Shown here in pieces: positions 144 to 51,508 of a stretch of DNA of 51,553 nt. Under the pieces are notes generated by a model. The model did no database searches. It saw nothing but the letters and a program-made list of their open reading frames with translations, and was not told where the DNA came from. Positions within the stretch are counted from its first letter, which is position 1. Each line of letters starts with the position of its first letter. Where the stretch lies: NCBI GenBank assembly GCA_963804975.1, contig CAWDSG010000002.1, positions 1 to 51,553 on the forward strand, read 5' to 3'. Source of the DNA: an uncultured bacterium. Lineage in GTDB: Bacteria > Patescibacteriota > Minisyncoccia > Phycocordibacterales > GWA1-40-21. The translations under genes and the position numbers were made by a program.

Positions 144-1892
144 TTAAAACACATCTGCAATTCTCAACCTCAACTCTTCATTGCCGTTCCAGAAGCTTTT
201 TTCAAAGTTTGCAAGCAAGTCAATTTTTTCTCCGGCAGCAATTTTTACCGAAAAATCCTCCGGTTTTGTAAAAAATCCCACTGCAGATATTTTTCGGCCT
301 TTTCCATTCCTGAAATCAATTTTCAAATGCTCGCTATTCTTGCCGAAAATCTTCACTTCCGAGATTTCAATTCCACGAAACGCAAAAATCGGTTTTGGAT
401 TGCCCATTCCAAACGGCGCAAGCAAACTTACCTGTTTTCCCAAATCATCATTCACATCGTCTATGGAAATTATCGCATCGGCGATTATTTTTTCTTTTGA
501 TTCATTTTTTACACTTAATTTTTGATACGAAATCTCAAGTTCATCGGAAAGCAGATCAACTTTGTCAAAATGCACGGTAAATCCGCCCGAGGCCGCATGG
601 CCGCCGTATTCAGAAAACACATTGGAAGATTCCCTCATCATCGCCACAATATCCACACAACCGTCCGATCTGCAGGAACCTTTCAAAGTTTTCCCTTCTT
701 CTCTGCCCCAGAGAAAAACCGGGCCATTATGCTCGTCCATAAGCGAACTTGCCACAAGTCCTAAGAGCGACGGCTTCCAATCCGGATTTCCTGCCACCAA
801 AACTTTTCTTTTTTTCTCCGAATCTCTTTCTTTCCAGTACTTTTTGATTTCTTTCACCATCGCCGCCACGACTCCTTTCCTTTCTTTGTTTATTTTATCC
901 AAATGTCGCGCGTATTTGTCCGCCTCCGTCTCGTCCGAGGTACTAAGCAGTAAAAATGCGTCTTCCGGTTCGCCCATTCTTGAAGCGGCATTTATTCTAG
1001 GGCTTATCATGAAAGAAATATCGTCTTCCGAAACATTTTTCTGGTCAATTCTCAAAAGCGAGAAAAGTTTCTGGAGCCCGGGTCTTGGTGATTTCCTCAA
1101 AACCTTAAGACCGTATCGGGCAAAAATCCTATTTTCGCCGATAAGCGGAACCATATCGGAAATCGTGGCAATCGCCACCATATCAAGGAGCCATTTCTCC
1201 CAACCAACTTTTATATTGAATTTTTCCGCATGTTTTTTCAAAAACGCCTGGACAAATTTGAAAACCACGCCGGTGGCGCAAAGATTTTTGTCCGGATATC
1301 CGCATTTTGACTGTTTTGGATTGATAATTGCGACGGCGTCTGGAAGTTTTTCTTTATTTTTTACCAAGGTCGGCAAATGGTGGTCTATTATTATCAAATC
1401 TATGCCAAGTTTTTTGATTTTTTTTGCTTCTTTCACATCTGCAATTCCGCAATCAATTGTTATGATCAGATTTACTTTTTTTCCGGCAAATTCGTCTATC
1501 GCCTGTTCATTCAAACCGAATCCTTCAAGCACGCGATGCGGAATATAATTTTCAAAAAAATCAAAGCCAATTTTTTTGAAAAAATCATGCATTATGACCG
1601 CTCCCGGTATGCCATCAGCATCATAATCGGAAAATATTATTATCTTTTCTTTCTTTTCAATCGCATCATGTATTCTTTTCACTGCTTTTTCCATATCCTT
1701 CATCAGAAAAGGATCGTGATTTTCCTCATAAACCGGATTTAAAAATTTCTCCGCATCTTTTGCAGTCTTGATTCCTCTGTAATATAGAAATTTGCGCAAA
1801 ATTTCCGGACCTGCCTGCCGGCCAGGCAGGTATTTTTCAAGTTCCTTGCTCGCTTTTTCGTCTATTTCTCCCCTGACTGAATAATTTTGCAT
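144..1892 (-). CDS. recJ: single-stranded-DNA-specific exonuclease RecJ (DHH/DHHA1)
   Basis: 582-aa ORF with DHH-family motifs (SDYDADG, IIIDHH, GGHAASGG) and the typical RecJ N-terminus (RGI..AEKFLNP). It carries the 21-bp palindrome in-frame near the N-terminus. Confidence 0.9.
   Translation of the reverse strand: MQNYSVRGEIDEKASKELEKYLPGRQAGPEILRKFLYYRGIKTAKDAEKFLNPVYEENHDPFLMKDMEKAVKRIHDAIEKKEKIIIFSDYDADGIPGAVIMHDFFKKIGFDFFENYIPHRVLEGFGLNEQAIDEFAGKKVNLIITIDCGIADVKEAKKIKKLGIDLIIIDHHLPTLVKNKEKLPDAVAIINPKQSKCGYPDKNLCATGVVFKFVQAFLKKHAEKFNIKVGWEKWLLDMVAIATISDMVPLIGENRIFARYGLKVLRKSPRPGLQKLFSLLRIDQKNVSEDDISFMISPRINAASRMGEPEDAFLLLSTSDETEADKYARHLDKINKERKGVVAAMVKEIKKYWKERDSEKKRKVLVAGNPDWKPSLLGLVASSLMDEHNGPVFLWGREEGKTLKGSCRSDGCVDIVAMMRESSNVFSEYGGHAASGGFTVHFDKVDLLSDELEISYQKLSVKNESKEKIIADAIISIDDVNDDLGKQVSLLAPFGMGNPKPIFAFRGIEISEVKIFGKNSEHLKIDFRNGKGRKISAVGFFTKPEDFSVKIAAGEKIDLLANFEKSFWNGNEELRLRIADVF
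1810..1830 (+). repeat. GC-rich 21-bp palindromic element, in-frame in recJ (encodes LPGRQAG)
   Basis: The + strand reads cctgcctgccggccaggcagg. The stem is 8 bp, or 9 with the flanking a/t, and the centre is 5 nt. Confidence 0.85.
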
Positions 1893-1899
1893 AGAAACA

Positions 1900-2673
1900 T
1901 TATTTTCCTATCTCTTTGATGAGTTCGACAAAATCATTGGTTTTCAAACTCTCTCTTCCAACCAGAAGTCCGTCAACATTTCCTTTTTCTACGATTTCTT
2001 TTGCGTTGCCTTTGGTCACCGAACCGCCATAAAGTATCATGATTTTTCCCAAATCTTTCTTTCCCAGAATATCGCTCACGACTTTTTTTATAAAAATCGC
2101 CATTTCGTAAAGTTTTTCCCCGTTCATCGCTTCTTTTTCTGATTTTCCTATTGCCCAAATCGGCTCGTAAGCCAAAATCAGATTTTTCGCGAATTTTTTC
2201 GGCAATTTTTCAATCGCGCTTCCAATCTGCCTTTTTATTTCCGGATATTGATCGCCATGCTCGTTTCTTTCTTTTTCTCCGACGCAAAGTATTGCTTTCA
2301 AGCCCTCTTTGAGCACGCCAAAAAGTTTTTCTCTGACAATTTCATCGCTGTCTCCGGCCGCTCTTTTTTCCGAATGCCCGACAATTACATATTTAACGCC
2401 GATTTTTTTAAGCATTTCCGGACTTATTTCTCCGGTATGTGCAACTCCTTGGCCCGCAAAAACATCTTGCGCGCCCAGCACGACTTTTCTTGACGAAGAA
2501 ATCGCTTTTGCGACTGCATTGAGGAACAAAAACGGCGGACAAATGATAAGCTTTGTGGACCCGAAACTCCTTGATTTTCTTGCTATTTCCGAAGAAATCG
2601 CTTTTGCCTTATCAAGCGATTCCGGATTCATTTTCCAGTTAGCCACTATCAATTTCTTCTTGGTTTTTGCCAT
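1900..2673 (-). CDS. tpiA: triosephosphate isomerase
   Basis: VANWKMN, GHSERR-like (VGHSEKR) and AYEPIWAIG motifs. Start taken at MAKTKKK; an alternative upstream ATG is at 2682. Confidence 0.92.
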   Translation of the reverse strand: MAKTKKKLIVANWKMNPESLDKAKAISSEIARKSRSFGSTKLIICPPFLFLNAVAKAISSSRKVVLGAQDVFAGQGVAHTGEISPEMLKKIGVKYVIVGHSEKRAAGDSDEIVREKLFGVLKEGLKAILCVGEKERNEHGDQYPEIKRQIGSAIEKLPKKFAKNLILAYEPIWAIGKSEKEAMNGEKLYEMAIFIKKVVSDILGKKDLGKIMILYGGSVTKGNAKEIVEKGNVDGLLVGRESLKTNDFVELIKEIGK

Positions 2674-2721
2674 ATGGATCAATTATACCATTTTAAATAT
2701 ATTTGCTATAATACTTCCGGC

Positions 2722-3183
2722 ATGGAAAATAAAATTTCTTGGAAAGCGCTTGAATATAAAAGGAAGGAAAAAACAGCCGACTGGTACTGGGCTGTCATAA
2801 TTATTGCAATATCAATCATTGTGATTGCGTTTATCGCCAGAGACGGTTTGTTTGCAATTTTCGTACTCCTTGCGACGATAACACTCCTTATGTTTTCCAT
2901 AAAACAGCCGAAATGGGTGGATGTGGCAATAGATCGGCGCGGATTCACTGTCGGCAACGATACATATCCGTTTGCGACGCTTAATGAATTCTGGGTTGAT
3001 ATCAGCGAAAAAAACAATGAAAAAATAATTCTTAAATCAAAAAGGGTAATTATGCCGCTTATCATCATCCCGATTGAAGAGCATCATCATTTGGATGTCC
3101 GCGAATTCCTTTTAAAATATCTTCCCGAAAAAGAATTGCACGAACCGCTTGCGCAGAAAATAATGGAAAGATTGGGATTTTAA
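2722..3183 (+). CDS. hypothetical membrane protein (2 TM segments)
   Basis: ORF with a hydrophobic N-terminal hairpin (WYWAVIIIAISIIVIAF.. / FAIFVLLATITLLMF). Start chosen at MENKISW. No family recognised. Confidence 0.55.
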   Translation: MENKISWKALEYKRKEKTADWYWAVIIIAISIIVIAFIARDGLFAIFVLLATITLLMFSIKQPKWVDVAIDRRGFTVGNDTYPFATLNEFWVDISEKNNEKIILKSKRVIMPLIIIPIEEHHHLDVREFLLKYLPEKELHEPLAQKIMERLGF

Positions 3184-3187
3184 TATC

Positions 3188-3261
3188 TCCTCTCATCGTT
3201 CAATGGATAGGACAAACCCTTGCGAAGGGTTAGATCGAGGTTCGATTCCTCGTGGGAGGAC
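3188..3261 (+). tRNA. tRNA-Arg(GCG)
   Basis: Acceptor TCCTCTC/GGGAGGA, anticodon stem AACCC/GGGTT with loop TTGCGAA, T-arm CGAGGTTCGATTCCTCG. No encoded CCA. Confidence 0.85.
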
Positions 3262-3297
3262 AATTATAAAAAATAAAATAACCCTTTCAGGGTTATT

Positions 3298-3570
3298 TTA
3301 TTTTTTTGCTTTCGCTTTATTCAAAAATTTTGTAATTTTTGATTTGTACCTGGCAGCGGTATTCTTTTTCAAAAATTTTGTCTTTACCGCTTTGTCTATT
3401 GCCTTGTAAACTTCCGGCAGCAATATTTGCGCCTCTTTTATTTTATTTTCCTTTATGAGTTTTTTTATGCTTTTCAGAGCGGAATCTATCGTATTTTTTC
3501 TGCGGATATTGAAAATCTGCTTCCTTTCGGCAACTCTTAATGCTTTTTTTGCTGATGATGTTATAGGCAT
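3298..3570 (-). CDS. rpsT: 30S ribosomal protein S20
   Basis: 90-aa basic protein beginning MPITSSAKKALRVAERK, typical of S20. Confidence 0.9.
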   Translation of the reverse strand: MPITSSAKKALRVAERKQIFNIRRKNTIDSALKSIKKLIKENKIKEAQILLPEVYKAIDKAVKTKFLKKNTAARYKSKITKFLNKAKAKK

Positions 3571-3648
3571 GATATTTTATTTACGAGAAACCAATTTAAC
3601 ACTTTCAAACCATAAAAGCAAGTTTAAAATATGTGATATAATATAAAT

Positions 3649-4230
3649 ATGATAGCAAAAATTGAAGGCATAGTTTGGGATACCAATAATAAATTTCTCG
3701 TGGTCGGTGTTGGCCTGCCCGGCCAGGGCGGAGTGGGGTTTAAAATTTACACAACCACAGAAACAAAAGAAGTTGCGATAAAAGGCACGAAAATTTCCCT
3801 CTTCACTCACTTGGCTGTGCGGGAAGATGCGCTTGACCTTTATGGATTTCTTTCGGAAGAAGAGCTTAATTTTTTTGAACTTTTGATTTCCATTTCCGGC
3901 ATCGGCCCAAAAACAGCTTTAAATGTTTTAAATGTCAGCTCCGTTTCTCTTCTCAAAAAAGCCATTTCTACCGCCGACACATCCCACCTGATTAAAGTTT
4001 CAGGCATCGGCAAGAAAATCGCGGAAAAAATCGTGCTTGAGCTCAAAGATAAAATATTCACGCAAAAAGAAACCGACATGAATTTGAAAGATGAGATTGA
4101 CGCGATGGAAGCTCTGCAGAGCTTGGGCTATTCGCAAAGAGAAGTCCGTGAAGCTCTGAAAAAAATTGACCAAAAATTTGTTAAAACGCAGGATAAAATA
4201 AAAGAAGCGTTGAAAGTTTTGGGGAAATAA
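3649..4230 (+). CDS. ruvA: Holliday junction DNA helicase subunit RuvA
   Basis: 193 aa. N-terminal MIAKIEG.., GGVGF motif, HhH motifs (ISGIGPKTA, VSGIGKKIAEKI), C-terminal domain III (ALQSLGY). Contains a 5-codon LPGQG insertion. Confidence 0.9.
   Translation: MIAKIEGIVWDTNNKFLVVGVGLPGQGGVGFKIYTTTETKEVAIKGTKISLFTHLAVREDALDLYGFLSEEELNFFELLISISGIGPKTALNVLNVSSVSLLKKAISTADTSHLIKVSGIGKKIAEKIVLELKDKIFTQKETDMNLKDEIDAMEALQSLGYSQREVREALKKIDQKFVKTQDKIKEALKVLGK
3712..3730 (+). repeat. short form of the GC-rich palindromic element (CCTG-CCCGGC-CAGG) in-frame in ruvA
   Basis: ggC CTG CCC GGC CAG GGC encodes G-LPGQG and interrupts VVGV-GGVGF. The codon phase (xxC CTG CCx) is the same as in the full 21-bp copies. 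Confidence 0.6.
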
Positions 4231-4260
4231 AAAAGGCGTAACACTTTAGATGTTACGCCC
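4231..4260 (-). terminator. intrinsic terminator for the 4279..4947 gene
   Basis: Hairpin GGCGTAACA-N7-TGTTACGCC with an A-run on the + strand, which is a T-run on the - strand. Confidence 0.7.
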
Positions 4261-4278
4261 ATTCTCATTAACTAAAAA

Positions 4279-4947
4279 CTAAAGAAGAGTTAAGGGCACA
4301 AAAATTTGATTGTCTTGAAAACACAAATTATATAATGCACCTTTCCTATTAACTTTGTGGGTTATTACCGAGAAATAATATCCGAGTGTATGAAAATCCC
4401 TGTAAATACTCGAAACTTCAATAACTCTCAGAATATTGCTTTGATCTCGGACAAAGAAAATATTCCCGGGTTCGCCTCTGCCCAAAAGAGTTTTTTTGTC
4501 AAAGGTGAAGCCTGAGTATCTTTCCATCAAAAGAAATATGTCTGCAAAGGTTGTTTCCACTTTGTTTTCGCCGCCAAACTCGGAAACAATGTCCTCGTAA
4601 TACATTTCTTTCTTGGCAAGATTGAAACAGCCCAACACTTTCGCTTTTTCCGGCTTCTCGACTTTTTCTTCGCATCTGATAAAGTCTTCCCCGCCGATAT
4701 AACCTATCTTTGCCGGTCCGACATGATTTACCACAAAATTATTTTTTACGACAAATGTGCTGGCTCTCTCGGGTATATTCACGCACCCGACAATCTTAAA
4801 TTTTTCCCAACACAATTCTTGGCGGAGGAAACGATTGAATTGATCGTTCCATAATTCGTGATTTTTTCCTCCAAGATTTACCAAAAGATGATGCAACGGT
4901 CCGGACTCAAATTCAGTCCGAAGCGCATTACTGAGCATGTTATCCAT
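4279..4947 (-). CDS. hypothetical protein
   Basis: 222-aa ORF with a good RBS (AAGGAG about 8 nt upstream of the ATG) and its own terminator. No family recognised. Confidence 0.65.
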   Translation of the reverse strand: MDNMLSNALRTEFESGPLHHLLVNLGGKNHELWNDQFNRFLRQELCWEKFKIVGCVNIPERASTFVVKNNFVVNHVGPAKIGYIGGEDFIRCEEKVEKPEKAKVLGCFNLAKKEMYYEDIVSEFGGENKVETTFADIFLLMERYSGFTFDKKTLLGRGEPGNIFFVRDQSNILRVIEVSSIYRDFHTLGYYFSVITHKVNRKGALYNLCFQDNQIFVPLTLL

Positions 4948-5092
4948 GGTCAGTCTCCTTTACAGAGATTTAACAAAAGAACCTTGGAAAGTCTTTATGT
5001 ATCAAAGAGCTTTGCAAAATTCTAGTTTAAGTTAAGCATATTCAAATATATATATCAAATAATTATATAAATTTTATTAACTGATGAATTTA

Positions 5093-6004: not shown

Positions 6005-6042
6005 AATTTAAGTTTAAAATGAAAAATATAAAAAGTAAAATT

Positions 6043-6522: not shown

Positions 6523-6614
6523 TTCAGTTTAGATATTAGCAGAAAGCGCACAAATGAAAAGCCAGTGATTTGACATTTGGATATGAATCATTATAATTGG
6601 CAACAAAATAGTTC

Positions 6615-6875
6615 TTGGTATTGATATGTAGGCTGCAAATGACGGAAAAATACTTCTTGGAAATAATCACCAAATGGTTTTGGTTTAATGCCGATAAACC
6701 AACACTAAATATGGTTATCGATAAAGTAATAGGCGCTTCGAACAGGCCTGAATTGTTCGAAAAACTTGAGGAAAGATTTATTACCAAAATCCCCCGCAAG
6801 GCTGCTAAGAAATTCATAACCTTTCTTGCTATATATAAGCACCTCAAGAAAGTTGTGCCGAAACAGTTCGCTTAA
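6615..6875 (+). CDS. hypothetical small protein (start may be 6639)
   Basis: ORF followed by a clean intrinsic terminator. No family recognised. Confidence 0.4.
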   Translation: MVLICRLQMTEKYFLEIITKWFWFNADKPTLNMVIDKVIGASNRPELFEKLEERFITKIPRKAAKKFITFLAIYKHLKKVVPKQFA

Positions 6876-6897
6876 AAAAACCGCTGACTGTATTTTA

Positions 6898-6967: not shown

Positions 6968-6991
6968 TTTGACATTTGACATTTGACATTT
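6968..6991 (+). promoter_or_regulatory. three tandem TTTGACA units (overlapping -35-like boxes) upstream of acpP
   Basis: tttgaca tttgaca tttgaca ttt. The last TTGACA is 16-17 nt from TATACT. Confidence 0.45.
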
Positions 6992-7047
6992 AATTACGAA
7001 TATTTATACTTGCCATAAAGCAGTTATTTTGAAATAGGGGGTGGCAA

Positions 7048-7826: not shown

Positions 7827-7866
7827 AAAATCGGCCCGGAACCGAAGGTTCCGGGCCTTTTGTTTT
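7827..7866. terminator. bidirectional intrinsic terminator
   Basis: GGCCCGGAACC-GAA-GGTTCCGGGCC flanked by an A-run and a T-run, between convergent genes. Confidence 0.85.
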
Positions 7867-9287: not shown

Positions 9288-9360
9288 TGCGCCCAGTAGG
9301 AATCGAACCTACGACCGTCTCCTTAAAAGGGAGCTGCTCTACCAACTGAGCTATGGGCGC
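9288..9360 (-). tRNA. tRNA-Lys(UUU)
   Basis: The reverse complement GCGCCCATAGCTCAGTTGGTAGAGC... has anticodon loop CTTTTAA and T-arm GTAGGTTCGATTCCTAC. No encoded CCA. Confidence 0.9.
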
Positions 9361-9406: not shown

Positions 9407-10171
9407 TTAAAGCTCCAGAATAAACTTCTCCAGAGCTACAAAAAAATCCGTATTCCCTCTATGCGCTTCGTGATACATTGATACGAGTTTCCACAAAATA
9501 TTTTGGAGTTCCTCGTCTTTATAATTCTTCGCGTATTCGCGGGCTTTTTGGAACGGATATGGCTTCATTCCAGCTTCTTCCGCACTCTTGCATAATTTCC
9601 CCAACATCATACTTTTCGCCTGCCAGAAAAAGATCCCGTGCACTTCCTCCGCTGGCACCTGTTCAGCCAAGGCATCCTGATAAAACACCCACAAGCCCTT
9701 TTTGTCTCTCCTGCCAAGAGCGTCTGCAAATTCAAAAAAATCTATTTTTTCTCCGACAAGTGCAAGTTTTTCTTTTTTATTCAGCGGTTTTTCCGGTTTT
9801 ATAAACTCCTGAACTTTCCCTGCCTGGCCGGCAGGCAGGTCTGCGACTTTTTCAATTTTTGCCAGCCCAGCTTTGTCCATCTTCCCTTCGGCAAATATAA
9901 AAATATTTTTCGATTTGCCGATTTCTTTAATATTTTTCAATATTAATTCCTTATTTTCTTTATTTTCAAAAGTTTTGTAGAAATATACAATATATTTATT
10001 TGAAAAAAGCGCTTGGCTTTGCGTAAGCTCGGCAATTCTTTCATTGGACAAATTTTCCTCCCCTATTTTTACAAGAGTTGCATCAGGTTTTTTGAGAAGT
10101 AAAGAATCAATTGTTATTTTTGCTTTCTTTCTCGCAGAATCTATATCTGAGCCGTAGTAAAAGTAGATCAT
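9407..10171 (-). CDS. holA: DNA polymerase III delta subunit-like protein (HolA)
   Basis: The N-terminus MIYFYYGSD..., overall length and C-terminal helical region resemble CPR HolA annotations recalled from memory. Start chosen at the internal ATG; the upstream extension is hydrophobic junk. Carries the 21-bp palindrome in-frame. Confidence 0.65.
   Translation of the reverse strand: MIYFYYGSDIDSARKKAKITIDSLLLKKPDATLVKIGEENLSNERIAELTQSQALFSNKYIVYFYKTFENKENKELILKNIKEIGKSKNIFIFAEGKMDKAGLAKIEKVADLPAGQAGKVQEFIKPEKPLNKKEKLALVGEKIDFFEFADALGRRDKKGLWVFYQDALAEQVPAEEVHGIFFWQAKSMMLGKLCKSAEEAGMKPYPFQKAREYAKNYKDEELQNILWKLVSMYHEAHRGNTDFFVALEKFILEL
9819..9839 (-). repeat. GC-rich 21-bp palindromic element, in-frame in holA (encodes LPAGQAG)
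   Basis: The + strand reads cctgcctggccggcaggcagg. Confidence 0.85.
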
Positions 10172-10643: not shown

Positions 10644-10676
10644 ATATCCCCTGAGAAAACTCGGGGGATATTTTTA
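10644..10676 (+). terminator. intrinsic terminator
   Basis: ATATCCCCTGAG-AAAA-CTCGGGGGATAT followed by TTTTT. Confidence 0.75.
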
Positions 10677-11393
10677 TTTTAATAAAACGATCGCACTTGC
10701 TACAATCGCTGCTGTTTCGGCGCGGAGAATTTGCGGGCCTAAAGATACTGATTTTATGCCTTTTTGTCTGAACAATTCCCTTTCTCTGTCCGTCCATCCG
10801 CCTTCGGGACCGACAAAAAGCCCGAGCTTTTTGCCCTGAGCCTGTCGAAGGGTTTCAATTTTTTCACCATTGAAATCCAGTGCAAACATTTTTCCCTCAA
10901 AACCTGCCTGGCCGGCAGGCAGGTTTTCAATTGCATTTTCCAAATCAACCGGTTCAAAAATTTCCGGCAAGTAAGCTCTCCCAGATTGTTCGCTCGCCTC
11001 TTTTGCAATCTTCTGCAACCTTTCAATATTCAGATCTTTCTTTTCGCTTCTCTCGGAAATTATAGGATGAAAAGCACTTGCGCCAATTTCTGTGCATTTT
11101 TCCACCACCAATTCAAAATTATCTTTTTTTATAATTGATTGAAAAAGATGCAATTCGGTTGCCGGAATATTTTCAATTTTTTTTTCTTTATCAATCACAA
11201 TAACCGCCTCTTTTTTACTAAGCAATTCAAAAAATCCTTCATATTCTTTGCCGTTGCCGTTAAAAAGTACAACTCTGTCCGCAACAGAAAAGCGAAAAAC
11301 TTTTATCCACTGATGCAAAAGCTCCGGATTTTCAATCCTGACTCGCTTTCCTTTTTCCAAAGTTTCTTCTATATAAAATCTGTGTAATCGCAT
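10674..11393 (-). CDS. rsmE: 16S rRNA (uracil1498-N3)-methyltransferase RsmE
   Basis: MRLHRFYI N-terminus and C-terminal SPOUT motifs (GPEGGW, LGPQILRAETA). Carries the 21-bp palindrome in-frame in a variable loop. Confidence 0.88.
   Translation of the reverse strand: MRLHRFYIEETLEKGKRVRIENPELLHQWIKVFRFSVADRVVLFNGNGKEYEGFFELLSKKEAVIVIDKEKKIENIPATELHLFQSIIKKDNFELVVEKCTEIGASAFHPIISERSEKKDLNIERLQKIAKEASEQSGRAYLPEIFEPVDLENAIENLPAGQAGFEGKMFALDFNGEKIETLRQAQGKKLGLFVGPEGGWTDRERELFRQKGIKSVSLGPQILRAETAAIVASAIVLLK
10903..10923 (-). repeat. GC-rich 21-bp palindromic element, in-frame in rsmE (encodes LPAGQAG)
   Basis: The + strand reads aaCCTGCCTGGCCGGCAGGCAGGtt, giving a 10-bp stem when the flanks are included. 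Confidence 0.85.
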
Positions 11394-15899: not shown

Positions 15900-15970
15900 T
15901 GCGGGTAGGGTGAATCGGACACCCGACTAGAGTTTGGAAAACTCCCATTTTACCACTAAACTATACCCGC
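15900..15970 (-). tRNA. tRNA-Gly(UCC)
   Basis: The reverse complement GCGGGTATAGTTTAGTGGTAAAAT... has anticodon loop TTTCCAA. No encoded CCA. Confidence 0.88.
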
Positions 15971-16346: not shown

Positions 16347-16419
16347 TCGGAGTGTGGTGTAACGGTAGCATATATGCTTTGGGAGCATACAGTCCGGGTT
16401 CAAATCCCGGCACTCCGAC
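16347..16419 (+). tRNA. tRNA-Pro(UGG)
   Basis: Acceptor TCGGAGT/ACTCCGA, anticodon loop TTTGGGA, T-arm CCGGGTTCAAATCCCGG. No encoded CCA. Confidence 0.88.
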
Positions 16420-17943: not shown

Positions 17944-18014
17944 TGCGGGTAGAGAGAATCGAACTCTCATCTAATCCTTGGCAAGGACTCATTCTACCAC
18001 TAAACTATACCCGC
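17944..18014 (-). tRNA. tRNA-Gly(GCC)
   Basis: The reverse complement GCGGGTATAGTTTAGTGGTAGAAT... has anticodon loop TTGCCAA. No encoded CCA. Confidence 0.9.
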
Positions 18015-18125: not shown

Positions 18126-18197
18126 GCGCCCGTGGTGAAATGGATATCACAATGGTCTTCGGAACCATTATTGTGGGTTCGATTCCTACCGGGCGCG
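18126..18197 (+). tRNA. tRNA-Arg(UCG)
   Basis: Acceptor GCGCCCG/CGGGCGC, anticodon stem ATGGT/ACCAT with loop CTTCGGA. No encoded CCA. Confidence 0.88.
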
Positions 18198-18493
18198 CAT
18201 TGCAAACAATTGAAAATTACCCTTATTTTGGGTGATTTTCTTTTGCAATGCGCGAGCCGGAGCGCGACGGCGCGAGGCGGGGTCGCGGAATTTTTCAGCA
18301 GAAAAATATCTGTGACTGCAAAAATTAAAAACTAATCAAAAAATTGAGTTATTTTTTGTTTTTGCATAAAAATTCTAAAAAATCAATCAAAGACATCAAA
18401 ATATTTTTAAAGACATAATAAGAACATATTTTACAAAAATTGTACTATTTAATTTATTTTTAGCTCTTAAAATAAGGGGTTCCCACGTGAAAC

Positions 18494-22308: not shown

Positions 22309-22755
22309 ATGGCTAATTTCGCGGAAAACAGAAAAGCTTATTTTAACTATGAAATCCTTGAAAAAATCACGGCGGGTATTGAGCTTGCCGGTTATGAAGT
22401 CAAAGCCATAAAAGCCGGGCGAATCACTTTGGATGGAGCTTACGTAACAATCCGCGGAGGCGAAGCATTTCTTATCGGTGCAGGCATTACATCGTTACAG
22501 CCAAAAAACACTCCGAAAGATTATGATGAGAGAAGAAATCGCAAACTTTTACTTACCAAAAAAGAGATAACCCGCCTTGCTGGCACAGAAAACAAGAATG
22601 GTTTGACAATTATACCACTTTCAGTGTATAATATGGGCCGCAAGCTTAAAGTAGAGCTTGGCATAGCTCGCGGAAAGAAAAGCAGAGACAAGCGTGAATC
22701 AATTAAAGCACGCGAATCCGCCCGCGAGATAGAGAGGACATTGAAAAATCAGTAA
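22309..22755 (+). CDS. smpB: SsrA-binding protein SmpB
   Basis: NRKAYFNYEILE...GYEVKAIK.. matches the conserved SmpB sequence. Confidence 0.93.
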   Translation: MANFAENRKAYFNYEILEKITAGIELAGYEVKAIKAGRITLDGAYVTIRGGEAFLIGAGITSLQPKNTPKDYDERRNRKLLLTKKEITRLAGTENKNGLTIIPLSVYNMGRKLKVELGIARGKKSRDKRESIKARESAREIERTLKNQ

Positions 22756-22756
22756 T

Positions 22757-23160
22757 GGGGATGATCGGCCTAGACAATTGACCAATTATCTTCTGCGCAA
22801 AGTGGAGCAACCTTGTGAACTCCTTAATCTCTCAAGGAAATATAAGTGCTAAAAACATTTATTCAAAAGTAATCGGTGTTCTTTCTCCTTACGGAGTTGG
22901 AAACCTTGCTTTCGCTACAGCTTCGGCTTAAGCGACATTTCACCTGCTGACGTCTGATAGGCGGAATGAAGTGTAATATTTTCAGGATATATTTTGTTAA
23001 TTCTCGGAACAAAACGAATTTAGAGAATCGGATTGCAAATATTTTGTTATTTTATAGTTTGCAATCTTAAATCCGCTTTCGGGCGGAAATAAAACAACTA
23101 AACTTTGTAGAAGCACGGATAATAATCATTTGCACCCGAGTTCGATTCTCGGCATCTCCA
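22757..23160 (+). ncRNA. ssrA: tmRNA (ssrA), one-piece
   Basis: It starts 2 nt after the smpB stop. The 5' GGGGATG pairs with the 3' CATCTCC (G3:U pair), and the T-arm is CGAGTTCGATTCTCG. An internal frame from GCT at 22848 to TAA at 22929 gives the candidate tag AKNIYSKVIGVLSPYGVGNLAFATASA; the resume codon is uncertain. Confidence 0.88.
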
Positions 23161-23241
23161 CATATACGAAAATCGCCTGATAATTCAGGTGATTTTTGTT
23201 GTTTAAATTAGATTTGACAAATAAGCACGAGAGGTTGAAAA

Positions 23242-24659: not shown

Positions 24660-24793
24660 TAGCAAAAGTTCTTCTCGAACCTATAGTGCCACTTCATCGC
24701 TATAGGATTCATTGAGGCGGGCTCGCGAGGAACAAACCCTCGCGAGCCCCTCAGGGCAAAGTAAGCCGGGATGTTATTTTCTCGGCTTTTTTT
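24660..24793 (+). ncRNA. candidate structured leader / riboswitch-like element or small RNA ending in an intrinsic terminator
   Basis: Three consecutive hairpins. The first is CCTATAG...CTATAGG (24680-24706). The second is a 12-bp perfect GC-rich stem, GGGCTCGCGAGG-AACAAAC-CCTCGCGAGCCC, inside 24714-24752. The third is the terminator AGCCGGG-N10-CTCGGCT followed by T7 (24764-24793). Confidence 0.4.
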
Positions 24794-33879: not shown

Positions 33880-34473
33880 TTATGCTCCCCAAATAGATAA
33901 ATTTGGATATTTTTTTCTTAGGGCAGTTAATTCAGTCTCAGATAGCATAGGAAGTAAAACACTACCTTTAACAGATTTAGGAAGTTTAAGACCCTTAGCT
34001 GATTCCAAATCTTGAAGAATAAGATTTCCATTGATGACTTCAGGAAATTTTACACCATCTGCTGATATAATATTTGAAAGATCAAGATTACCGCCAATAG
34101 ATTCCGGAAATTTAAGACCCTTTGCTGATTCCAACGTTTTAAGATATAGGTGTCCCCCAATAAATTCTGGAAGTTTCAAACCCTTAGCTGATTCAATATT
34201 ATCAAGATTAACCTCTCCACCAACATGTTTAGGAAGCTCTAAAACTCCAGTTTCGGGAAGATATCTAAGATCAAGATTACCGCCAACAAATTCTGGAAAT
34301 TTCAAACCTTTAGTTGATGTAAGATTTCGTAGGTCAAGATTACCACTAATAGACTTCGGAAGTTTTAAACCTTCGGCTGATGTGAGAGTAGAATAATCAA
34401 GGTCGCCTTGAAATTCATATTGTTGTTCCTGTTTATTTTCTTCAAAAATTTCTTCTGGATTAATCTTTTTCAT
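33880..34473 (-). CDS. repeat protein with seven 21-aa LRR-like repeats
   Basis: The unit (S/T)AKGLK(L/F)Pxx(I/V)GGNLDLxxLx is repeated 7 times, and a 63-bp periodicity is visible in the DNA at about 33942-34386. Confidence 0.65.
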   Translation of the reverse strand: MKKINPEEIFEENKQEQQYEFQGDLDYSTLTSAEGLKLPKSISGNLDLRNLTSTKGLKFPEFVGGNLDLRYLPETGVLELPKHVGGEVNLDNIESAKGLKLPEFIGGHLYLKTLESAKGLKFPESIGGNLDLSNIISADGVKFPEVINGNLILQDLESAKGLKLPKSVKGSVLLPMLSETELTALRKKYPNLSIWGA

Positions 34474-39195: not shown

Positions 39196-39314
39196 TGATT
39201 TTATGGAACGACCCTTAGATTTCGCCTTATTTTTAGGGTCGAATATTGAGTTTTCGTCTTTTATAAGCCAATTTTATTAAGGGAATTCGGTACTTTCTGA
39301 ATTTTTACGGCCTA

Positions 39315-39332
39315 CCTGCCGGTAAAGGCAGG
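39315..39332. repeat. stem-only variant of the GC-rich palindrome (CCTGCC-N6-GGCAGG) in the 5' leader of the M23 gene
   Basis: The context is cctaCCTGCCggtaaaGGCAGGctc. Confidence 0.4.
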
Positions 39333-42976: not shown

Positions 42977-43777
42977 ATGGAGAAAATAATTGCAAAAAAA
43001 TCGCTGGGGCAGAACTTTTTGAAATCAAAAATGGTTCTTTCGGCAATGGTAGAAGCCGGACAAATATCTCAAAACGATATTGTGCTTGAAATCGGACCGG
43101 GGCAGGGAACTTTGACGGAAAAATTGTTGGAAACCGGAGCAAAAATTATTTCTGTGGAAAAAGACGATAGATTAATTAAATTTTTGAAAGAAAAATTTGC
43201 AAAAGAAATTACGAGTGGCCAATTACAAATAATTCATAGGGATATTTTAGAGTTAGATTTGCGTTCACTTGGTTTAACAGCTAACAGCTACAAGCTAATA
43301 GCTAATATCCCTTATTACATCACCGGCCAAATATTCAGGAAATTTTTGTCCGGAAACATTCAGCCGGAAAAAATAGTTATTATGGTTCAGAAAGAAATCG
43401 CCGATAGGATCGTTGCAAGAGACGAAAAAGAAAGCTTGTTGTCGCTTTCCGTAAAAGTTTACGGCAAACCGACCAAGATTATGAAAGTAGAAAAGGAAAA
43501 TTTCAGTCCGAAACCGAAAGTTGATTCTGCGATTTTGCTTATTGATAATATTTCCAAAGATTTTTTTAAAAGTGTAAGTGAAAAACAATTTTTTGATACG
43601 ATAAAAGCCGGATTTGCGCATAAAAGGAAGATTTTAACAGCAAATTTAAAGGGTATTTTCGAGAAAAAAGGAAAAAATCTCTCCGAGATTTTTTCCGCTC
43701 TGAAAATTCCCCCAAAAGCCCGCGCCGAGGATTTGACACTTCCTGATTGGAAAAATATCGTTTCTGTTGTACAATAA
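42977..43777 (+). CDS. rsmA: 16S rRNA (adenine1518/1519-N6)-dimethyltransferase RsmA/KsgA
   Basis: KSLGQNFL, EIGPGQGTLT and ANIPYYIT motifs. Confidence 0.9.
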   Translation: MEKIIAKKSLGQNFLKSKMVLSAMVEAGQISQNDIVLEIGPGQGTLTEKLLETGAKIISVEKDDRLIKFLKEKFAKEITSGQLQIIHRDILELDLRSLGLTANSYKLIANIPYYITGQIFRKFLSGNIQPEKIVIMVQKEIADRIVARDEKESLLSLSVKVYGKPTKIMKVEKENFSPKPKVDSAILLIDNISKDFFKSVSEKQFFDTIKAGFAHKRKILTANLKGIFEKKGKNLSEIFSALKIPPKARAEDLTLPDWKNIVSVVQ

Positions 43778-45322: not shown

Positions 45323-45395
45323 CAGCCGATTTAAAAATAAATTGGAAAAATCCATTCGTGTAAAATTGATATTTGCTGTGTTATAATTATCACTG

Positions 45396-46379: not shown

Positions 46380-46385
46380 AATACT

Positions 46386-48320
46386 ATGAATTTTTTAAAA
46401 AATTTTAATAAAAAAATATCCTGTTTGCTCATTATATCTATTTTAGCTGTTAATCTTTCTTTTTTGGCTTTTCCCCAAAAAACAAAAGCGGTGACAGTTT
46501 TGGGAACAGGAACATCTGCAGAAGAGGTGTGGTTCATAGCGAATGGAGTTCAGGCCGCTGCTTTTTATAATGCTGCAGTACCCGCCACAGCTGCATTTCA
46601 AGCAAAACAGCTTGCTGCCCCTTCTATTTGGAATATCCTTGAACAAGATGGCGTTCTTCCTGCTCTTCAGGCAATTGCAGAAGATATCGCAAGACAAATT
46701 ATTCAAAATATCACTGAAGCAACGGTAAATTGGATCAACAACGGTTTTAACGGCCAGCCAGCATATGTGTCAAATATAGGAAATTTTCTTGCGAATACGG
46801 CAGACCAGACAATCGGTGAAGAACTTTTAAATTCAGATTTGAATTTCCTTTGCACTCCATTCCAGCTTCAGGTCAAGCTCGCCCTCAACTTATCCTACTC
46901 GCAGCCGTATTATAAGCAGATTGGCTGTACTCTCACCGGAGCAATCGCAAACGCCACAAACGCAGTCAATGATTTTACAAGTGCGGAGGGATGGAATAAT
47001 TGGCTTCAGATGAGCACAAACCCGCAAAATAATCCTATTGGCGCATTTCTTATAGCGCAAAACCATATCAACACCCAGGTTGCGGCAAGACAGGCTTCCG
47101 CTTTAGCGGAAGTAAGTATCGGCCAAGGAGCTTTGAGTTATAAAGATTGCGTAGAAACCACAAAGGACAGCAATGGAGAGCTTGTGTCAACACGAGAATA
47201 TTTAGGTTCTGATTTTCTTAATGCCAGTGCTAACGTAACTTTGCCTAACGGTAAAAATATTGTCAATACCAACACTCCTGCAAATACAACGAACACAACA
47301 AATAAAACAACGACTGAATGTACAACTAAAACCCCAGGAGCTGTTATTACAAATATGCTCGGTTTTAGCGCCACCAGTGATGTCAGAGTAACCGAGCTTC
47401 AGGCAGCTTTATCAAACGGCATAGACCAGGTTCTTGGAAGCCTCGCAAACGCACTTATTAAAAAAGGACTTTCGGCGCTTCAAAACGGCGTGCTTGGAAA
47501 TAACAGCACTACAAACGCCGATTATAATTCACAGCTCAATTCAATACTGCAACAAACTCAGACGCAATATAACCAAACTGCGCAACAAGTTCAAAACCCG
47601 AATTATACTCCGGATTATAATCTTGGAAGCCAGCTCAATCAGTATGACACCTTTTTGGGCAACAATTACAGCTCCGGTTTCAATCCTACGCCGGAGACAG
47701 CCACGACAACAAACGGGCAAAGCATCAGCCCAAGCGATCCATTTTATTCCGAAAAAACAAATTCCATTTCAATCATCAACTCAATACTGAATTTTGAATA
47801 CAAATATCAGGATGTGTACGACGTGGCTCTTAACATACTTTCCGCGGGAAGAGATGTTTTTAACAGCGCAAAAAATTGCAATATTGCTCTTGGAGACCCC
47901 GCATCGTATTCCAGAGCGCTTTCCATAAACGCAAATGTCATTTCAAACATAGATAGAACAGTCAATTACAGCAAAACGATTCCGCAGATACCTTGGAGCT
48001 TGCCGGCTCTGGACAGCTCAATGATACTTTCAAATTCCCATGTTGATATCCTTAACAACGCACAAGACACAATAATAAGCGCCACTGCAGGCGATACGAT
48101 TTCAAGCGAGATGGATATTATAAATGGCACAAACTTCAACGCCGACCAGCCGCTTGCGAATATGATTAGCAATATAAAAGCATGGTTTACCCAAATGAGC
48201 ATTATGTACACGACAGCCCAGTGTCCGATAGATCTGACTTCTGCTCTCACCGGCAATGCGCCTGCGCAATCCGAAGGCGCAACAAGTTCAACTGTCACTT
48301 CCGGAAGCTTTTTGCAGTAA
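46386..48320 (+). CDS. large secreted N/T/Q-rich protein (possible secretion-system or surface component)
   Basis: 644 aa with a signal/anchor sequence and a start 6 nt after the preceding stop. A strong GC-rich terminator lies downstream. No family recognised. Confidence 0.6.
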   Translation: MNFLKNFNKKISCLLIISILAVNLSFLAFPQKTKAVTVLGTGTSAEEVWFIANGVQAAAFYNAAVPATAAFQAKQLAAPSIWNILEQDGVLPALQAIAEDIARQIIQNITEATVNWINNGFNGQPAYVSNIGNFLANTADQTIGEELLNSDLNFLCTPFQLQVKLALNLSYSQPYYKQIGCTLTGAIANATNAVNDFTSAEGWNNWLQMSTNPQNNPIGAFLIAQNHINTQVAARQASALAEVSIGQGALSYKDCVETTKDSNGELVSTREYLGSDFLNASANVTLPNGKNIVNTNTPANTTNTTNKTTTECTTKTPGAVITNMLGFSATSDVRVTELQAALSNGIDQVLGSLANALIKKGLSALQNGVLGNNSTTNADYNSQLNSILQQTQTQYNQTAQQVQNPNYTPDYNLGSQLNQYDTFLGNNYSSGFNPTPETATTTNGQSISPSDPFYSEKTNSISIINSILNFEYKYQDVYDVALNILSAGRDVFNSAKNCNIALGDPASYSRALSINANVISNIDRTVNYSKTIPQIPWSLPALDSSMILSNSHVDILNNAQDTIISATAGDTISSEMDIINGTNFNADQPLANMISNIKAWFTQMSIMYTTAQCPIDLTSALTGNAPAQSEGATSSTVTSGSFLQ

Positions 48321-48349
48321 TTTTCTATAAAAAAGATTAAAAACAAACA

Positions 48350-48385
48350 GCGGGGCGGGGCGCAAAGCGCCCCGCCTTGTTATTT
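48350..48385 (+). terminator. strong GC-rich intrinsic terminator
   Basis: GGCGGGGCGC-AAA-GCGCCCCGCC followed by TTGTTATTT. Confidence 0.8.
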
Positions 48386-48408
48386 GCTGTTATTTGCCCC
48401 GTATTGCT

Positions 48409-48436
48409 TTGAAAAAATATAAACGAATGGTATAAT
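48409..48436 (+). promoter_or_regulatory. sigma70-like promoter (TTGAAA-16-TGgTATAAT)
   Basis: Extended -10 box 12 nt upstream of the ATG at 48448. Confidence 0.5.
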
Positions 48437-48447
48437 TTTAGCATCCG

Positions 48448-50700
48448 ATGACCCGATTTTTCAAAAAAAAATCAATTGGGCTTTTTTTGCTATCTATCGC
48501 AATCTGCGGCTTTTTCTATTCTGGCATTGGTGTTGCAAATGCACAAACACCTGTAATATCCGGACATTTAATATATACAGATTATACAGGTGAAGGTGAG
48601 GCTGCAGAGCAGCATTATTTTGAGTATTTAGGTAATCAATCATGGTCGGAAATAGATAAAAATGGAAAAGTAATAGGAGCTGCCATATCAGATGCCGATA
48701 TGTTAAAAAATCATAATCAACAAAATAATTTTAACAAAGCACAAGCACAAGAAACAAATTATAAAACTAATCTTCCTGCAACTTATAACAAACCCGTTGC
48801 CGAAAATCCTTCGGTTTCAGGATCTGATGTTGCTGATTTTATTGGAGGAATTTTAAATCTTCCTACTGCTGCTGCTTGGCTATCTTTTTTCAATATATTA
48901 TTTTATACACTTGCTTTTATTTTATCAATCGCAGGTTTTCTTCTTGACGGAGCAATCGGTATTTCTTTGTTCGGAATGTCCAAAATTTTTGCAAATCTTG
49001 GACCGCTTGATCAAGTATGGTCACTTGTCAGAGATACAATGAATATCGTGTTTATTTTTATGCTCCTTTACATTGCCATCAGTATGATTCTCGGTAGTTT
49101 GGGAGTGAAAGCAAAAGCAAGCTTAACAAGCGTAATCGTCAGCGCCCTTTTTATAAATTTCAGCATGTTTATCGCAAAAGTGATAATAGATGCCGGAAAT
49201 CTTGTTGCGGTGGCCTTATATAACCAAATTCCCGGAAATTCTGCATTTGTCGGTACAGGAAGCAATCTTGGACATTCAATATTGTCCGGTCTTATTGTAA
49301 ATGGATTATCCGGCCAAAATTGGGGACAATTTTTTCTTAGCTTAAGTACGTTTTCAGGACAGGCAAATATACTGGTTTTTGTTATTTTAAAAACTATAGT
49401 TGTCGGCATATCTTGCTATGTATTGATTTACGCTGGAGGAATATTCATAGGAAGAATAGTTATGCTTATGATTCTTGCAGTGACCTCGCCTGTTGGCTTT
49501 ATTGGCGGAGCGATACCTTGGCTTGATGATTTGCGAGGCAAGTGGTGGAAAACTTTTACAGATCAAGTGATTGTAGCTCCTATGTTTATGTTCTTAATGC
49601 TTTTGTTTGTGAAGATGCTTGATATTATACATAGTATTAGCCAAGATACGACAAACGCATCAATGTGGGCTACAATATCTACAAAATTTGATTGGGCTAA
49701 TTACCTTTTTTATATATTGATGATAATCCTTCTTTGGGAAGGAATGAAAATGGTGAAACAAACGAGCGGCAAAGTTGGTGAAATGGCAAACAAAATAGGA
49801 GCCGCTCTTACAGTTGCAGGTGCAGCAGTCGCCACAATGGGTGTTGCTGGTGTTGTTGGTGTTGCTGGAGGCGTAGGAGCAGCAGCTAGAGGCGGAAGCT
49901 TCTTGGCAGGCGCCGCGAAAGGAGCCGGCCGTGTGATGAATGTGCCTTATAAATTTGCCACGGGCGAATATGAAAATAAATCTGGACCTTTAGGATACGC
50001 CGGAAGAGTTGTAAGGGGAGGAATATTGGGAGGAGCCGAAAAAATGACAGGCGGATTTATAAGCGAAAAAACAGTTAAAGAAGAAATGGCGAGAAAAAGA
50101 GGAGAGGTAACAAAAACAGAAACTGAATTGAAAGCGAAACAAGAAAGGATGGCGAGTACCTATCAGATAGCTATGGACAGAGCTCAAGCTACCGCAGAAA
50201 AAATAACAAAAGAGAAAAAAGATACTTTGGAAAACGAAAATAAGACCGATAGAAGAAATCTTGATAGAGCTAAAAAATGGTCTGAGGAACTTGATCAAAA
50301 GATTGCTATTCTTACTAATGCTGGGCAACCGGTACCAGCTGATTTAACTAACCAAAAAGCTCAAGCGGACGAACGATTAAGTAGGGCTCATGCAGAACTT
50401 GATGATTCGACGCAGAGACTAAGGAATTTCCAAATAACCCTTAAGAATAGGTTGGCCATTGAAGCTGCAAACCTCGGAACAACTGTTAGTGAATTGGCTC
50501 AAGAAAAGGTATCGGCAATTAGGCTTACTCCGGAAATCAAAGCGGCAGCTCTAAAGAGAATCCGGTTAGCAACCGAAATCAAACAAGGTCAATATACTAC
50601 AGCCGCTATTTTGGCTTCGCTCGGAAGATTGGCGATTACCCCTGAGGCGCAGGAAAAACTGGGCGAAGAAATGTACAAAGGTCCCGATAAAAAATCTTGA
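48448..50700 (+). CDS. polytopic membrane protein, VirB6/TrbL-like architecture
   Basis: 750 aa. Signal peptide ending VANAQ, an extracytoplasmic domain of about 130 aa, at least 6 TM segments, a Gly/Ala-rich tract and a C-terminal coiled coil of about 200 aa. The call rests on architecture only; no motif-level match could be verified. Confidence 0.5.
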   Translation: MTRFFKKKSIGLFLLSIAICGFFYSGIGVANAQTPVISGHLIYTDYTGEGEAAEQHYFEYLGNQSWSEIDKNGKVIGAAISDADMLKNHNQQNNFNKAQAQETNYKTNLPATYNKPVAENPSVSGSDVADFIGGILNLPTAAAWLSFFNILFYTLAFILSIAGFLLDGAIGISLFGMSKIFANLGPLDQVWSLVRDTMNIVFIFMLLYIAISMILGSLGVKAKASLTSVIVSALFINFSMFIAKVIIDAGNLVAVALYNQIPGNSAFVGTGSNLGHSILSGLIVNGLSGQNWGQFFLSLSTFSGQANILVFVILKTIVVGISCYVLIYAGGIFIGRIVMLMILAVTSPVGFIGGAIPWLDDLRGKWWKTFTDQVIVAPMFMFLMLLFVKMLDIIHSISQDTTNASMWATISTKFDWANYLFYILMIILLWEGMKMVKQTSGKVGEMANKIGAALTVAGAAVATMGVAGVVGVAGGVGAAARGGSFLAGAAKGAGRVMNVPYKFATGEYENKSGPLGYAGRVVRGGILGGAEKMTGGFISEKTVKEEMARKRGEVTKTETELKAKQERMASTYQIAMDRAQATAEKITKEKKDTLENENKTDRRNLDRAKKWSEELDQKIAILTNAGQPVPADLTNQKAQADERLSRAHAELDDSTQRLRNFQITLKNRLAIEAANLGTTVSELAQEKVSAIRLTPEIKAAALKRIRLATEIKQGQYTTAAILASLGRLAITPEAQEKLGEEMYKGPDKKS

Positions 50701-50719
50701 TTAATTATAAAATAAAATT

Positions 50720-51508
50720 ATGGATAATGATTTAGACAAAAATCTTGAAGAACAGTTCCAAAATCTACCGAAAGAACTTCGGGAGGCAATTTCTTCTGCT
50801 GATTTACCAAATAAGCTGCAACAAATAACAAAAAATAACCAAATTCTTCTTGATCAAGCAGAAAATGTACAAAAAGAAACATTATTGGTCCTTTTAGGAC
50901 TTGAGCCGCTTGAAAACTATACTGAAAACTTACAAAAAAATGCCGAGCTTACTAAAAATCAGGCTATAGCTATAGCTCATGATATAAACGAACTAGTATT
51001 CAAAAATGTCAGGGAAACATTACGAAAGATAAATGAAGATGCTGAAGCTGCAGAAGCCGGGGCAACAGCCGAAAAGGAAAAATTACCAGCAGCAAGCGCT
51101 CTGCAGCCGAGCAGGGAAGAAATACTTGCTGGCATTGAAAATCCGGAAAATATAAAAACAAAAGAAGAGGCCGTTTCAATCAGTTCGATTTCATCAAACA
51201 TTCCAAAACCTGCGGAGAAATCGGAGATAGCTCCTGAAAAAACAGAAATAAAAAATGATTTGCTTCCGGAAATATATCCAGAGACAAATATTTCCGCCGA
51301 GTCCGTGCTTTTACCGAAACAGGAACCGTACCATGAAAATATTTCTCCGGTAGAAAATATAGTGCAATCTAAAATGTCCGGACCGGTTATCGTACCGAAA
51401 GAAACTGTCGTAGTTGAAAAAACAAAATTGCCGGACCTGCCAGCCGGCCAGGCAGGAAAATCAAAACCTTCGGATTCCACAGACCCATATCGCGAACCAA
51501 TAATATAA
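50720..51508 (+). CDS. acidic low-complexity protein of unknown function
   Basis: 262-aa ORF starting 19 nt after the preceding stop. It carries the 21-bp palindrome in-frame near the C-terminus. Confidence 0.55.
   Translation: MDNDLDKNLEEQFQNLPKELREAISSADLPNKLQQITKNNQILLDQAENVQKETLLVLLGLEPLENYTENLQKNAELTKNQAIAIAHDINELVFKNVRETLRKINEDAEAAEAGATAEKEKLPAASALQPSREEILAGIENPENIKTKEEAVSISSISSNIPKPAEKSEIAPEKTEIKNDLLPEIYPETNISAESVLLPKQEPYHENISPVENIVQSKMSGPVIVPKETVVVEKTKLPDLPAGQAGKSKPSDSTDPYREPII
51436..51456 (+). repeat. GC-rich 21-bp palindromic element (1 substitution), in-frame in the 50720 ORF (encodes LPAGQAG)
   Basis: The + strand reads cctgccAgccggccaggcagg. Confidence 0.8.

Follow-up and report, generated by a model that had tools for sequence, protein, structure and literature searches.

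A GC-rich palindrome of 21 bp was found four times, nearly identical in sequence and each time inside a gene, in a 51,553-nucleotide stretch of DNA from an uncultured bacterium of the Patescibacteriota (GenBank assembly GCA_963804975.1, contig CAWDSG010000002.1, positions 1 to 51,553; the whole stretch is called the window below). The 21-mer is probably one copy of a mobile palindrome, ultra-small and non-autonomous, that is pasted into new sites as DNA and is then filtered by selection where it lands in genes. It seems to be among the smallest mobile elements known. The palindrome family occurs in several phyla and in phages.

Copies in the window and their empty sites

A pattern search for CCTGCCTG-(GCCGG/CCGGC)-CAGGCAGG, with any five G or C letters at the centre (SSSSS), gave four matches in the window, three exact and one with a single substitution, all at the places given in a preliminary description of this DNA; no match was obtained in 100 dinucleotide-preserving shuffles of the window. 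The GC content of the 21-mers was about 76-81%, compared with 38.8% for the window. Copy 1 (1810..1830, minus strand) lies in recJ (144..1892, minus; Pfam DHH, DHHA1 and RecJ_OB), where it reads C CTG CCT GGC CGG CAG GCA GG on the coding strand and encodes LPGRQAG. The other three copies encode LPAGQAG: copy 2 (9819..9839, minus) in a holA-like gene for DNA polymerase III delta (9407..10171, minus; Pfam DNA_pol3_delta_C), copy 3 (10903..10923, minus) in rsmE (10674..11393, minus; Pfam Methyltrans_RNA and PUA_4), and copy 4 (51436..51456, plus), which has the substitution (CCTGCCAG...) and is probably the oldest in the window, in an open reading frame (ORF) for an acidic protein (50720..51508, plus). 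The Pfam domains agreed with the names first given to recJ, holA and rsmE; the acidic ORF had no Pfam match and occurs among Paceibacteria-type genomes. The holA-like product aligned over its full length to a 247-residue orthologue, and its start is likely the Met at 10171, the mechanical ORF extending to 10291. Copy 1 is the reverse complement of copies 2 and 3, so both orientations are present. All four copies are intragenic, and the first base of the element occupies codon position 3 in each. The preceding codons (TAC, GAC, AAC and GAC for copies 1 to 4) all end in AC and none of the three frames of the element holds a stop codon, in agreement with the preliminary description.

Alignment with orthologues placed the copies at insertions of exactly seven residues in RecJ, HolA and RsmE, and in the acidic protein relative to most of its orthologues. 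For RsmE, the window protein has ...AIEN-LPAGQAG-FE..., and each of the 25 orthologues in alignment A1 (58-77% identity) has ...AIEN-FD... instead. The HolA-like protein showed a single 7-residue gap against a syntenic, 76%-identical orthologue at locus L131; the empty site in the L131 DNA is GCA GAA AAA, and the window has GCA GA[C CTG CCT GCC GGC CAG GCA GG]G AAA. In RecJ the insert comes directly after a conserved Tyr, and 20 aligned orthologues lacked its seven residues. Most of the 19 aligned orthologues of the acidic protein had KLP-EK at the position of KLP-D-LPAGQAG-K, a few had other short inserts, and the nearest relative had DLPAQA at the insert site (an 18-nt or decayed relative of the element). 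An AlphaFold2 model of RsmE (mean pLDDT 86.9) had one segment only with a pLDDT below 50, residues 159-164; these fall within the insert, in a coil predicted to join a helix and a strand.

The same pattern was observed in an isolate genome. The arylsulfatase gene of Terrimonas sp. R1 reads CGC AA[CCTGCCTGGCCGGCAGGCAGG]C AAA, and a 90%-identical metagenome orthologue reads CGC AAC AAA, a difference of exactly +21 nt with no target-site duplication. Flanking duplications, considered in the preliminary description, were likewise absent from the HolA pair, the second filled/empty comparison. The sulfatase of T. pollutisoli carries LPDRQAG, one substitution away from an intact copy, and a 74%-identical orthologue carries a strongly decayed LLERQAG at the same codon. 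These variants show that copies decay by point mutation, as neutral sequence does; DLPAQA and window copy 4 are further decayed members of the family.

The recurrence of one short GC-rich sequence in many metagenome assemblies might point to a sequencing, adapter or assembly artefact. This is next to impossible. A separate assembly (L369), made from another sample and sequencing run, was 99.99% identical to the window over 10.8 kb and held an identical copy 4, so the 21-mer is not an assembly artefact; the element is also present in isolates (intact in Terrimonas sp. R1, with one substitution in T. pollutisoli), and its copies are in frame, biased in phase and decayed to graded extents.

A shorter relative of 15 nt (GGCCTGCCCGGCCAG; 3712..3726, plus) was found in ruvA (3649..4230, plus; Pfam RuvA_N, HHH_5 and RuvA_C). 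It has one CCTG/CAGG arm pair and reads GGC CTG CCC GGC CAG, giving GLPGQ in the same codon phase as the 21-mers. Alignments to RuvA structures in the PDB shifted by five residues exactly at GLPGQ, and the 17-mer of ruvA also forms a 5-residue insert in the RsmE orthologue of another genome (P0014/L130), two codons from the site used in the window. The window, which is almost wholly coding, held family forms of 21 and 15 nt only and no 20-mer. A 22-nt intergenic sequence (CCTACCTGCCGGTAAAGGCAGG; 39311..39332, unstranded) with one mismatch per arm is an uncertain candidate, as likely to be an unrelated hairpin in a leader region as a decayed relative of the element. A scan of the window against Rfam at gathering thresholds gave no match at the elements, only the transfer-messenger RNA (tmRNA) and seven tRNAs.

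Two further observations concern the host genes. Variable loops of Paceibacteria RsmE proteins hold other short inserts, namely LRAKRGNPGLN, ...CHGNTLAMTG, CHASLAMTG, FLRRQESI... and IPRGGTLG (P0018/P0020/P0023/P0054, P0056, P0113, P0115, P0041 and P0093 in alignment A1; L131:5001-5717). The DNA of the one that was checked, from P0018, is GC-rich (TTGCGAGCGAAGCGTGGCAATCC), which suggests several small GC-rich insert families in Paceibacteria-type genomes. Beyond the 3' end of the window (L369:10796-12246), PrgI-like and TraC-like genes come next after the acidic host ORF, which by this gene order appears to open a type IV secretion or conjugation-like cluster.

Distribution and family structure

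Outside the window, the 21-mer with any G/C centre was found at no fewer than 119 loci in GTDB species genomes (at least 119), both in coding and in non-coding DNA. By record title these loci were mostly from Bacteroidota, with others from Omnitrophota, Planctomycetota, Patescibacteria and a few further groups, and isolates including Terrimonas sp. R1 were among them. Among the matches listed, the GC content of the loci ranged from 0.33 to 0.72 around an identical 21-mer, and the centre was GCCGG/CCGGC in 95 of 131 copies and CCCGG/CCGGG in 22 of 131. When 135 flank pairs were compared all against all, the flanks were unrelated across loci; the exceptions were a few repeats within genomes and one orthologous Ferruginibacter pair. 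The recurring unit is therefore the palindrome as such. The element includes the terminal C and G, since 9 of 10 viral matches to the inner 19-mer carried both. A target-site duplication or a shifted boundary, considered as the source of the enriched C after the element, was rejected on this inner 19-mer scan and on the filled/empty pairs.

Scans of viral and metagenome contigs with a free centre of 1-10 nt showed that the 21-mer is one form of a family of 18-21 nt, with the core CCTG(C/T)CTG, a short GC centre and CAG(G/A)CAGG. Among the matches listed, the perfect 20-bp palindrome CCTGCCTGCCGGCAGGCAGG, with 56 of 125 copies, was the commonest metagenome form, ahead of forms with the centres CCG (16) and CG (8); the 21-nt forms were a minority, and viral contigs were similar. 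Across family copies the centres CG, CCG, CCGG and CCGGC were seen. One phage contig with genes for a terminase and an SU10-type portal (L128, IMGVR_UViG_3300019458_000440) contained 15 family members of 18-21 nt within 11.9 kb; three of them lie inside the terminase and portal genes, all in phase 3 (LPAQAG, LSAQAG and LPGQTG). The same contig has a C/T arm variant, CCTGTCTG...CAGGCAGG, which leaves a G-T wobble on one strand. No other recurrent family of GC-rich hairpins was found in the same loci.

An origin of the palindromes from a larger conventional transposon, as its excision footprints or its abutted terminal inverted repeats, is quite unlikely. Two abutted inverted repeats do look like a palindrome, the variation in length from 18 to 21 nt resembles imprecise footprints, and the 7-nt direct repeats found on either side of some copies (8 of 92 21-mers, compared with 0.32 expected, among the matches listed) could be old target-site duplications. 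However, half-site pairs lying further apart in 2.8 Mb of element-bearing sequence had no recurrent spacing and no shared interior, which argues against a larger element, and no transposase family recurred within 3 kb of copies at about 360 loci. The dominance of a single centre in the genome scan and the gain of exactly 21 nt without duplication in both filled/empty comparisons also speak for a palindrome that inserts on its own.

Length and phase in genes

The preliminary description held that the element always lies in the same codon phase. This stands for the four window copies; elsewhere it is a preference. Among the matches listed (as for the other counts in this section), 33 of 47 clear coding copies in AT-rich loci were in phase 3 (binomial p=4e-7); phases 2 and 1 held 6 and 8 copies. 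Intergenic-like copies were distributed 8/10/10 over the three phases, with no preference. Length was filtered as well: on contigs below 50% GC, 17 of 21 copies with a length divisible by three lay in ORFs of at least 150 aa, compared with 30 of 88 copies of other lengths (Fisher p=1.4e-4).

The bases that adjoin the element were also non-random. T never preceded the element in 61 coding copies in phase 3 (0 of 61), and the Gly codon completed after it was GGC in 37, GGT in 18, GGG in 5 and GGA in 1, all of which are synonymous. Intergenic-like copies avoided the same junction bases, and the junction bias is a DNA-level signature. A purine/pyrimidine preference at the junctions was tried as the cause of the phase bias and rejected: combined with the codon composition of the window, it predicts 28, 40 and 31% for phases 1, 2 and 3, as opposed to the 33 of 47 observed in phase 3. 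Read in the other two frames, the element gives PACRPGR/PAWPAGR or xCLPARQ/xCLAGRQ; phase 3 gives the small, flexible LP(AG/GR)QAG. Since a phase preference exists in genes and none exists between them, selection acting on the encoded peptide once a copy has inserted is the best explanation of the bias; in the simplest reading, no frame-sensing insertion machinery is required.

The peptide could instead be the point of the insertion, if LPAGQAG/LPGRQAG were a true protein motif that was gained for its function, for instance as a linker or a processing site. The same peptide does occur in several proteins, and always in exposed loops. This explanation is very improbable: the motif was absent from every aligned RecJ, RsmE and HolA orthologue and from most orthologues of the acidic protein; the codons were identical in genomes of 33-72% GC; the two orientations give two different peptides; and copies occurred in each of the three phases as well as outside coding sequence. 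The earlier argument for spread at the DNA level was borne out by the 7-residue insertions, by unrelated flanks across phyla and by the empty site of Terrimonas.

A selected cis-acting site for DNA uptake, recombination, protein binding or methylation that proteins merely tolerate is also unlikely, although several observations are in its favour. The 21-mer was conserved exactly in two Ferruginibacter species (L097/L105) whose flanks are 85% identical, copy density was very high in the phage contig described above, and the adjoining bases were non-random; uptake sequences and HIP1 are known examples of short over-represented motifs with a reading-frame bias. In the tested cases, however, copies arose by insertion and not by substitution (RsmE, HolA, RecJ, the acidic ORF and the Terrimonas sulfatase), and they decay by point mutation in several lineages. 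The centre, which holds the CCGG/GCCGGC sites, varies between copies, and it would be surprising for Patescibacteria, Bacteroidota, Omnitrophota and Planctomycetota to have a single recognition system in common. The uptake or methylation target mentioned in the preliminary description therefore fits poorly.

Copying, precedents and implications

In the mechanism that we propose for the mobile palindrome, it would be pasted into unrelated sites with neither a target-site duplication nor a linked gene. Selection in genes would keep only lengths divisible by three, and the survivors there would mainly be in the phase read as Leu-Pro-(Ala-Gly or Gly-Arg)-Gln-Ala-Gly, not in the frames that contain Cys, Trp or Arg. 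Surviving inserts would occupy disordered, hydrophilic surface loops, where the encoded peptide would be a tolerated passenger rather than a functional motif. The data do show that the bare palindrome inserts without duplication into many unrelated targets, that copies decay, that genes filter them by length class and phase, that the inserts lie in protein loops, and that the family is present in several phyla and in phages. The copying step itself is conjectural. It may use a hairpin form on single-stranded DNA, copied by a trans-acting enzyme or by replication-associated template switching at stalled forks; tandem heptamers beside the element would be slippage by-products of hairpin-stalled replication, and phages are plausible vehicles between lineages. 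In DNA folding predictions the elements formed hairpins of -8.0 to -8.9 kcal/mol, with an 8-bp stem, a 5-nt loop and -8.5 to -8.9 kcal/mol for the 21-nt unit, and this stability would favour a single-strand hairpin intermediate.

Many copies lie within or beside tandem heptamers, the sequence of which differs by locus; explicit arrays were seen at L031, L048, L085, L189, L252 and L343, and at none of the four window copies. Among the matches listed, the lag-7 autocorrelation in 40-nt flanks was 0.326 for 20-mers and 0.300 for 21-mers, compared with 0.260 for a distal control. A few copies appeared to be nested within older ones (e.g., L163 and L170). Heptamer repeats are over-represented in many bacterial genomes, possibly by polymerase slippage (PMC4692102). 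In a UvrC-like gene on a metagenome contig (L308:900-1000), a 20-nt copy together with AATTATG/AATTACG heptamers is read through as ...NYELRIMNDALPAGRQELRI..., showing that composite inserts of heptamers and palindrome can stay in frame.

Several points weigh against a mobile palindrome. No linked enzyme was found when ORFs within 3 kb of copies (about 360 loci) were clustered, which yielded only phage structural families and generic ABC ATPases; since no mobilising enzyme was found, the copying mechanism is a matter of conjecture. With no vector demonstrated, it is difficult to account for an identical 21-mer in different phyla. Its conservation in the Ferruginibacter pair could hint at selection on the element itself, with the proviso that ascertainment bias applies. 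At the sulfatase codon, the element is intact in one lineage and heavily decayed in a more distant one, and closer relatives are empty (L015/P0271/L371/L370), a pattern that calls either for a preferred target (a hot spot or strong site specificity) or for precise loss, neither of which is explained. The collection scans needed exact arms, so that their counts are lower bounds on a sample that is not random; the coding status of loci outside the window was taken from longest ORFs instead of gene calls; and phylum labels are those of the records of metagenome-assembled genomes or of record titles.

An apparent PstB cluster near copies was considered and dissolved on inspection. For the 25 window proteins that were scanned, Pfam indicated housekeeping functions only and no match to a transposase or HUH family was obtained; whole genomes were not searched for these.

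The preliminary description named the Rickettsia palindromic elements as the closest precedent, and the comparison is apt for behaviour. According to PMC10969869, these elements (Ogata et al. 2000) are about 100-150 bp long, encode tens of residues, form ten families and are confined to Rickettsia. They resemble the present palindrome as palindromic selfish DNA that lies in frame in unrelated housekeeping genes at fold-compatible positions, which was found here too; they are far longer than the 21 nt and seven residues seen here, where the host is not Rickettsia and the spread crosses phyla. The small dispersed repeats (SDR) of Nostoc are the closer precedent. SDR1-8 of Nostoc/Nostocaceae, reportedly described by Elhai and colleagues in 2008 (Genome Res 18:1484), are said to be 21-27 nt long, with a predicted hairpin, heptamer embedding, nesting, presence or absence between relatives, and no transposase. 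The unit here is of similar size (18-21 nt) and is also predicted to form a hairpin; it shares with the SDRs many dispersed copies with unrelated flanks, frequent embedding in tandem heptamers, apparent self-nesting, presence or absence at orthologous sites (here the Terrimonas sulfatase and HolA) and the lack of an associated transposase. It probably differs in sequence, and it differs in its hosts, which are Patescibacteria, Bacteroidota, others and phages, not Nostocaceae, and in its salient feature, the in-frame colonisation of essential genes with a filter on length class and phase. SDRs are reported only in Nostocaceae (PMC5861425).

Other systems resemble the palindrome in part. Repetitive extragenic palindromes (REP/REPIN) are hairpins of 20-40 nt mobilised by RAYT; they are extragenic and species-specific, often form inverted doublets and have a 5' tetranucleotide (PMC3116915). 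Like them, the present element is a short GC-rich hairpin repeat with many dispersed copies that probably act as single-stranded hairpins. Unlike them, its window copies are all intragenic, and no RAYT gene, doublet or conserved 5' tetranucleotide was seen. Conventional miniature inverted-repeat transposable elements have terminal inverted repeats around an internal segment and a fixed-length target-site duplication, whereas the whole element here is one hairpin and the two filled/empty comparisons had no duplication. HIP1 and the uptake sequences (USS/DUS) are lineage-specific and accumulate by substitution in place. They share with the palindrome an abundance far above chance for a short motif and a tolerated presence in genes with a reading-frame bias, but all copies tested here were length-changing insertions, of seven residues or, in RuvA, five. 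Yeast mitochondrial GC clusters and Volvox palindromes are mobile GC-rich palindromes of AT-rich organelle genomes; the likeness lies in the spread of GC-rich palindromes through an AT-rich genome and, for the organelle ones, an occasional place in coding sequence, and the difference in that those are longer, more heterogeneous and not known to be common to distant lineages.

Other repeats and RNA genes were observed in the window. An intergenic perfect tandem heptamer, TTTGACA x3.4 (6968-6991), is followed by AATTACGAAT at 6992-7001 with no palindrome; these motifs (6968-7001) are of the same heptamer kinds as those that flank palindromes in other genomes. In a KsgA/RsmA-like gene (42977-43777), TAACAGC x4.4 (43275-43305; 83% matches) encodes ...GLTANSYKLIAN.... 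Perfect intergenic GC-rich hairpins with stems of 11, 12 and 10 bp lie at 7833-7857, 24719-24749 and 48354-48376; the first and third are followed by a T-rich run, as in a terminator, and the second is between divergent genes. A GC-rich stretch of 47 nt with a loose 7-nt periodicity (GCGCGAG-like; 18245-18291) is directly downstream of a tRNA gene in AT-rich intergenic DNA. Within the ORF at 33880-34473 (minus), four copies of a 63-nt tandem repeat (33973-34223; 68% matches) give 21-residue protein repeats. The smpB gene adjoins the tmRNA gene (22309-23163; 106.5 bits, Rfam), and the Rfam tRNA genes are at 1-87, 3189-3260, 9288-9360, 15900-15970, 16348-16418, 17944-18014 and 18126-18197.

No prior description of the sequence, its cross-phylum spread, its carriage by phages or an explicit filtering of length and phase in essential genes was found in the searchable literature, and full-text searches returned nothing relevant for the 20-mer, the 21-mer, the encoded peptides or the other insert peptides. 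A wider proposal, which we put forward tentatively and hold somewhat more doubtful than probable, is that one palindrome family of 18-21 nt is mobile in many phyla and in phages with no element-encoded or linked enzyme. Its movement would rely on a widely available mechanism that has escaped recognition, for example hairpin capture at replication forks or a phage-borne enzyme of broad host range, and its variants with lengths divisible by three would be protein-compatible selfish DNA able to enter essential genes. If this is true, the isolated observation of SDRs in Nostoc would extend to a general class of nano-sized mobile elements, and 21 bases would suffice for a mobile element. The spread across phyla makes the mode of movement of such tiny repeats testable, since culturable carriers exist (e.g., Terrimonas) and copy number can be correlated with gene content. 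Inserts of this kind can mislead orthologue alignment, motif discovery and the annotation of ORFs in metagenomes, and they are a candidate explanation for some unexplained short indels in proteins of candidate-phyla bacteria. They also amount to a natural experiment in how well different loops of conserved proteins accept insertions. For the bacterium itself, the wider proposal would mean that essential genes of a reduced 0.6-Mb genome (recJ, ruvA, holA and rsmE) are open to colonisation when the length and phase of the insert are compatible with the protein.

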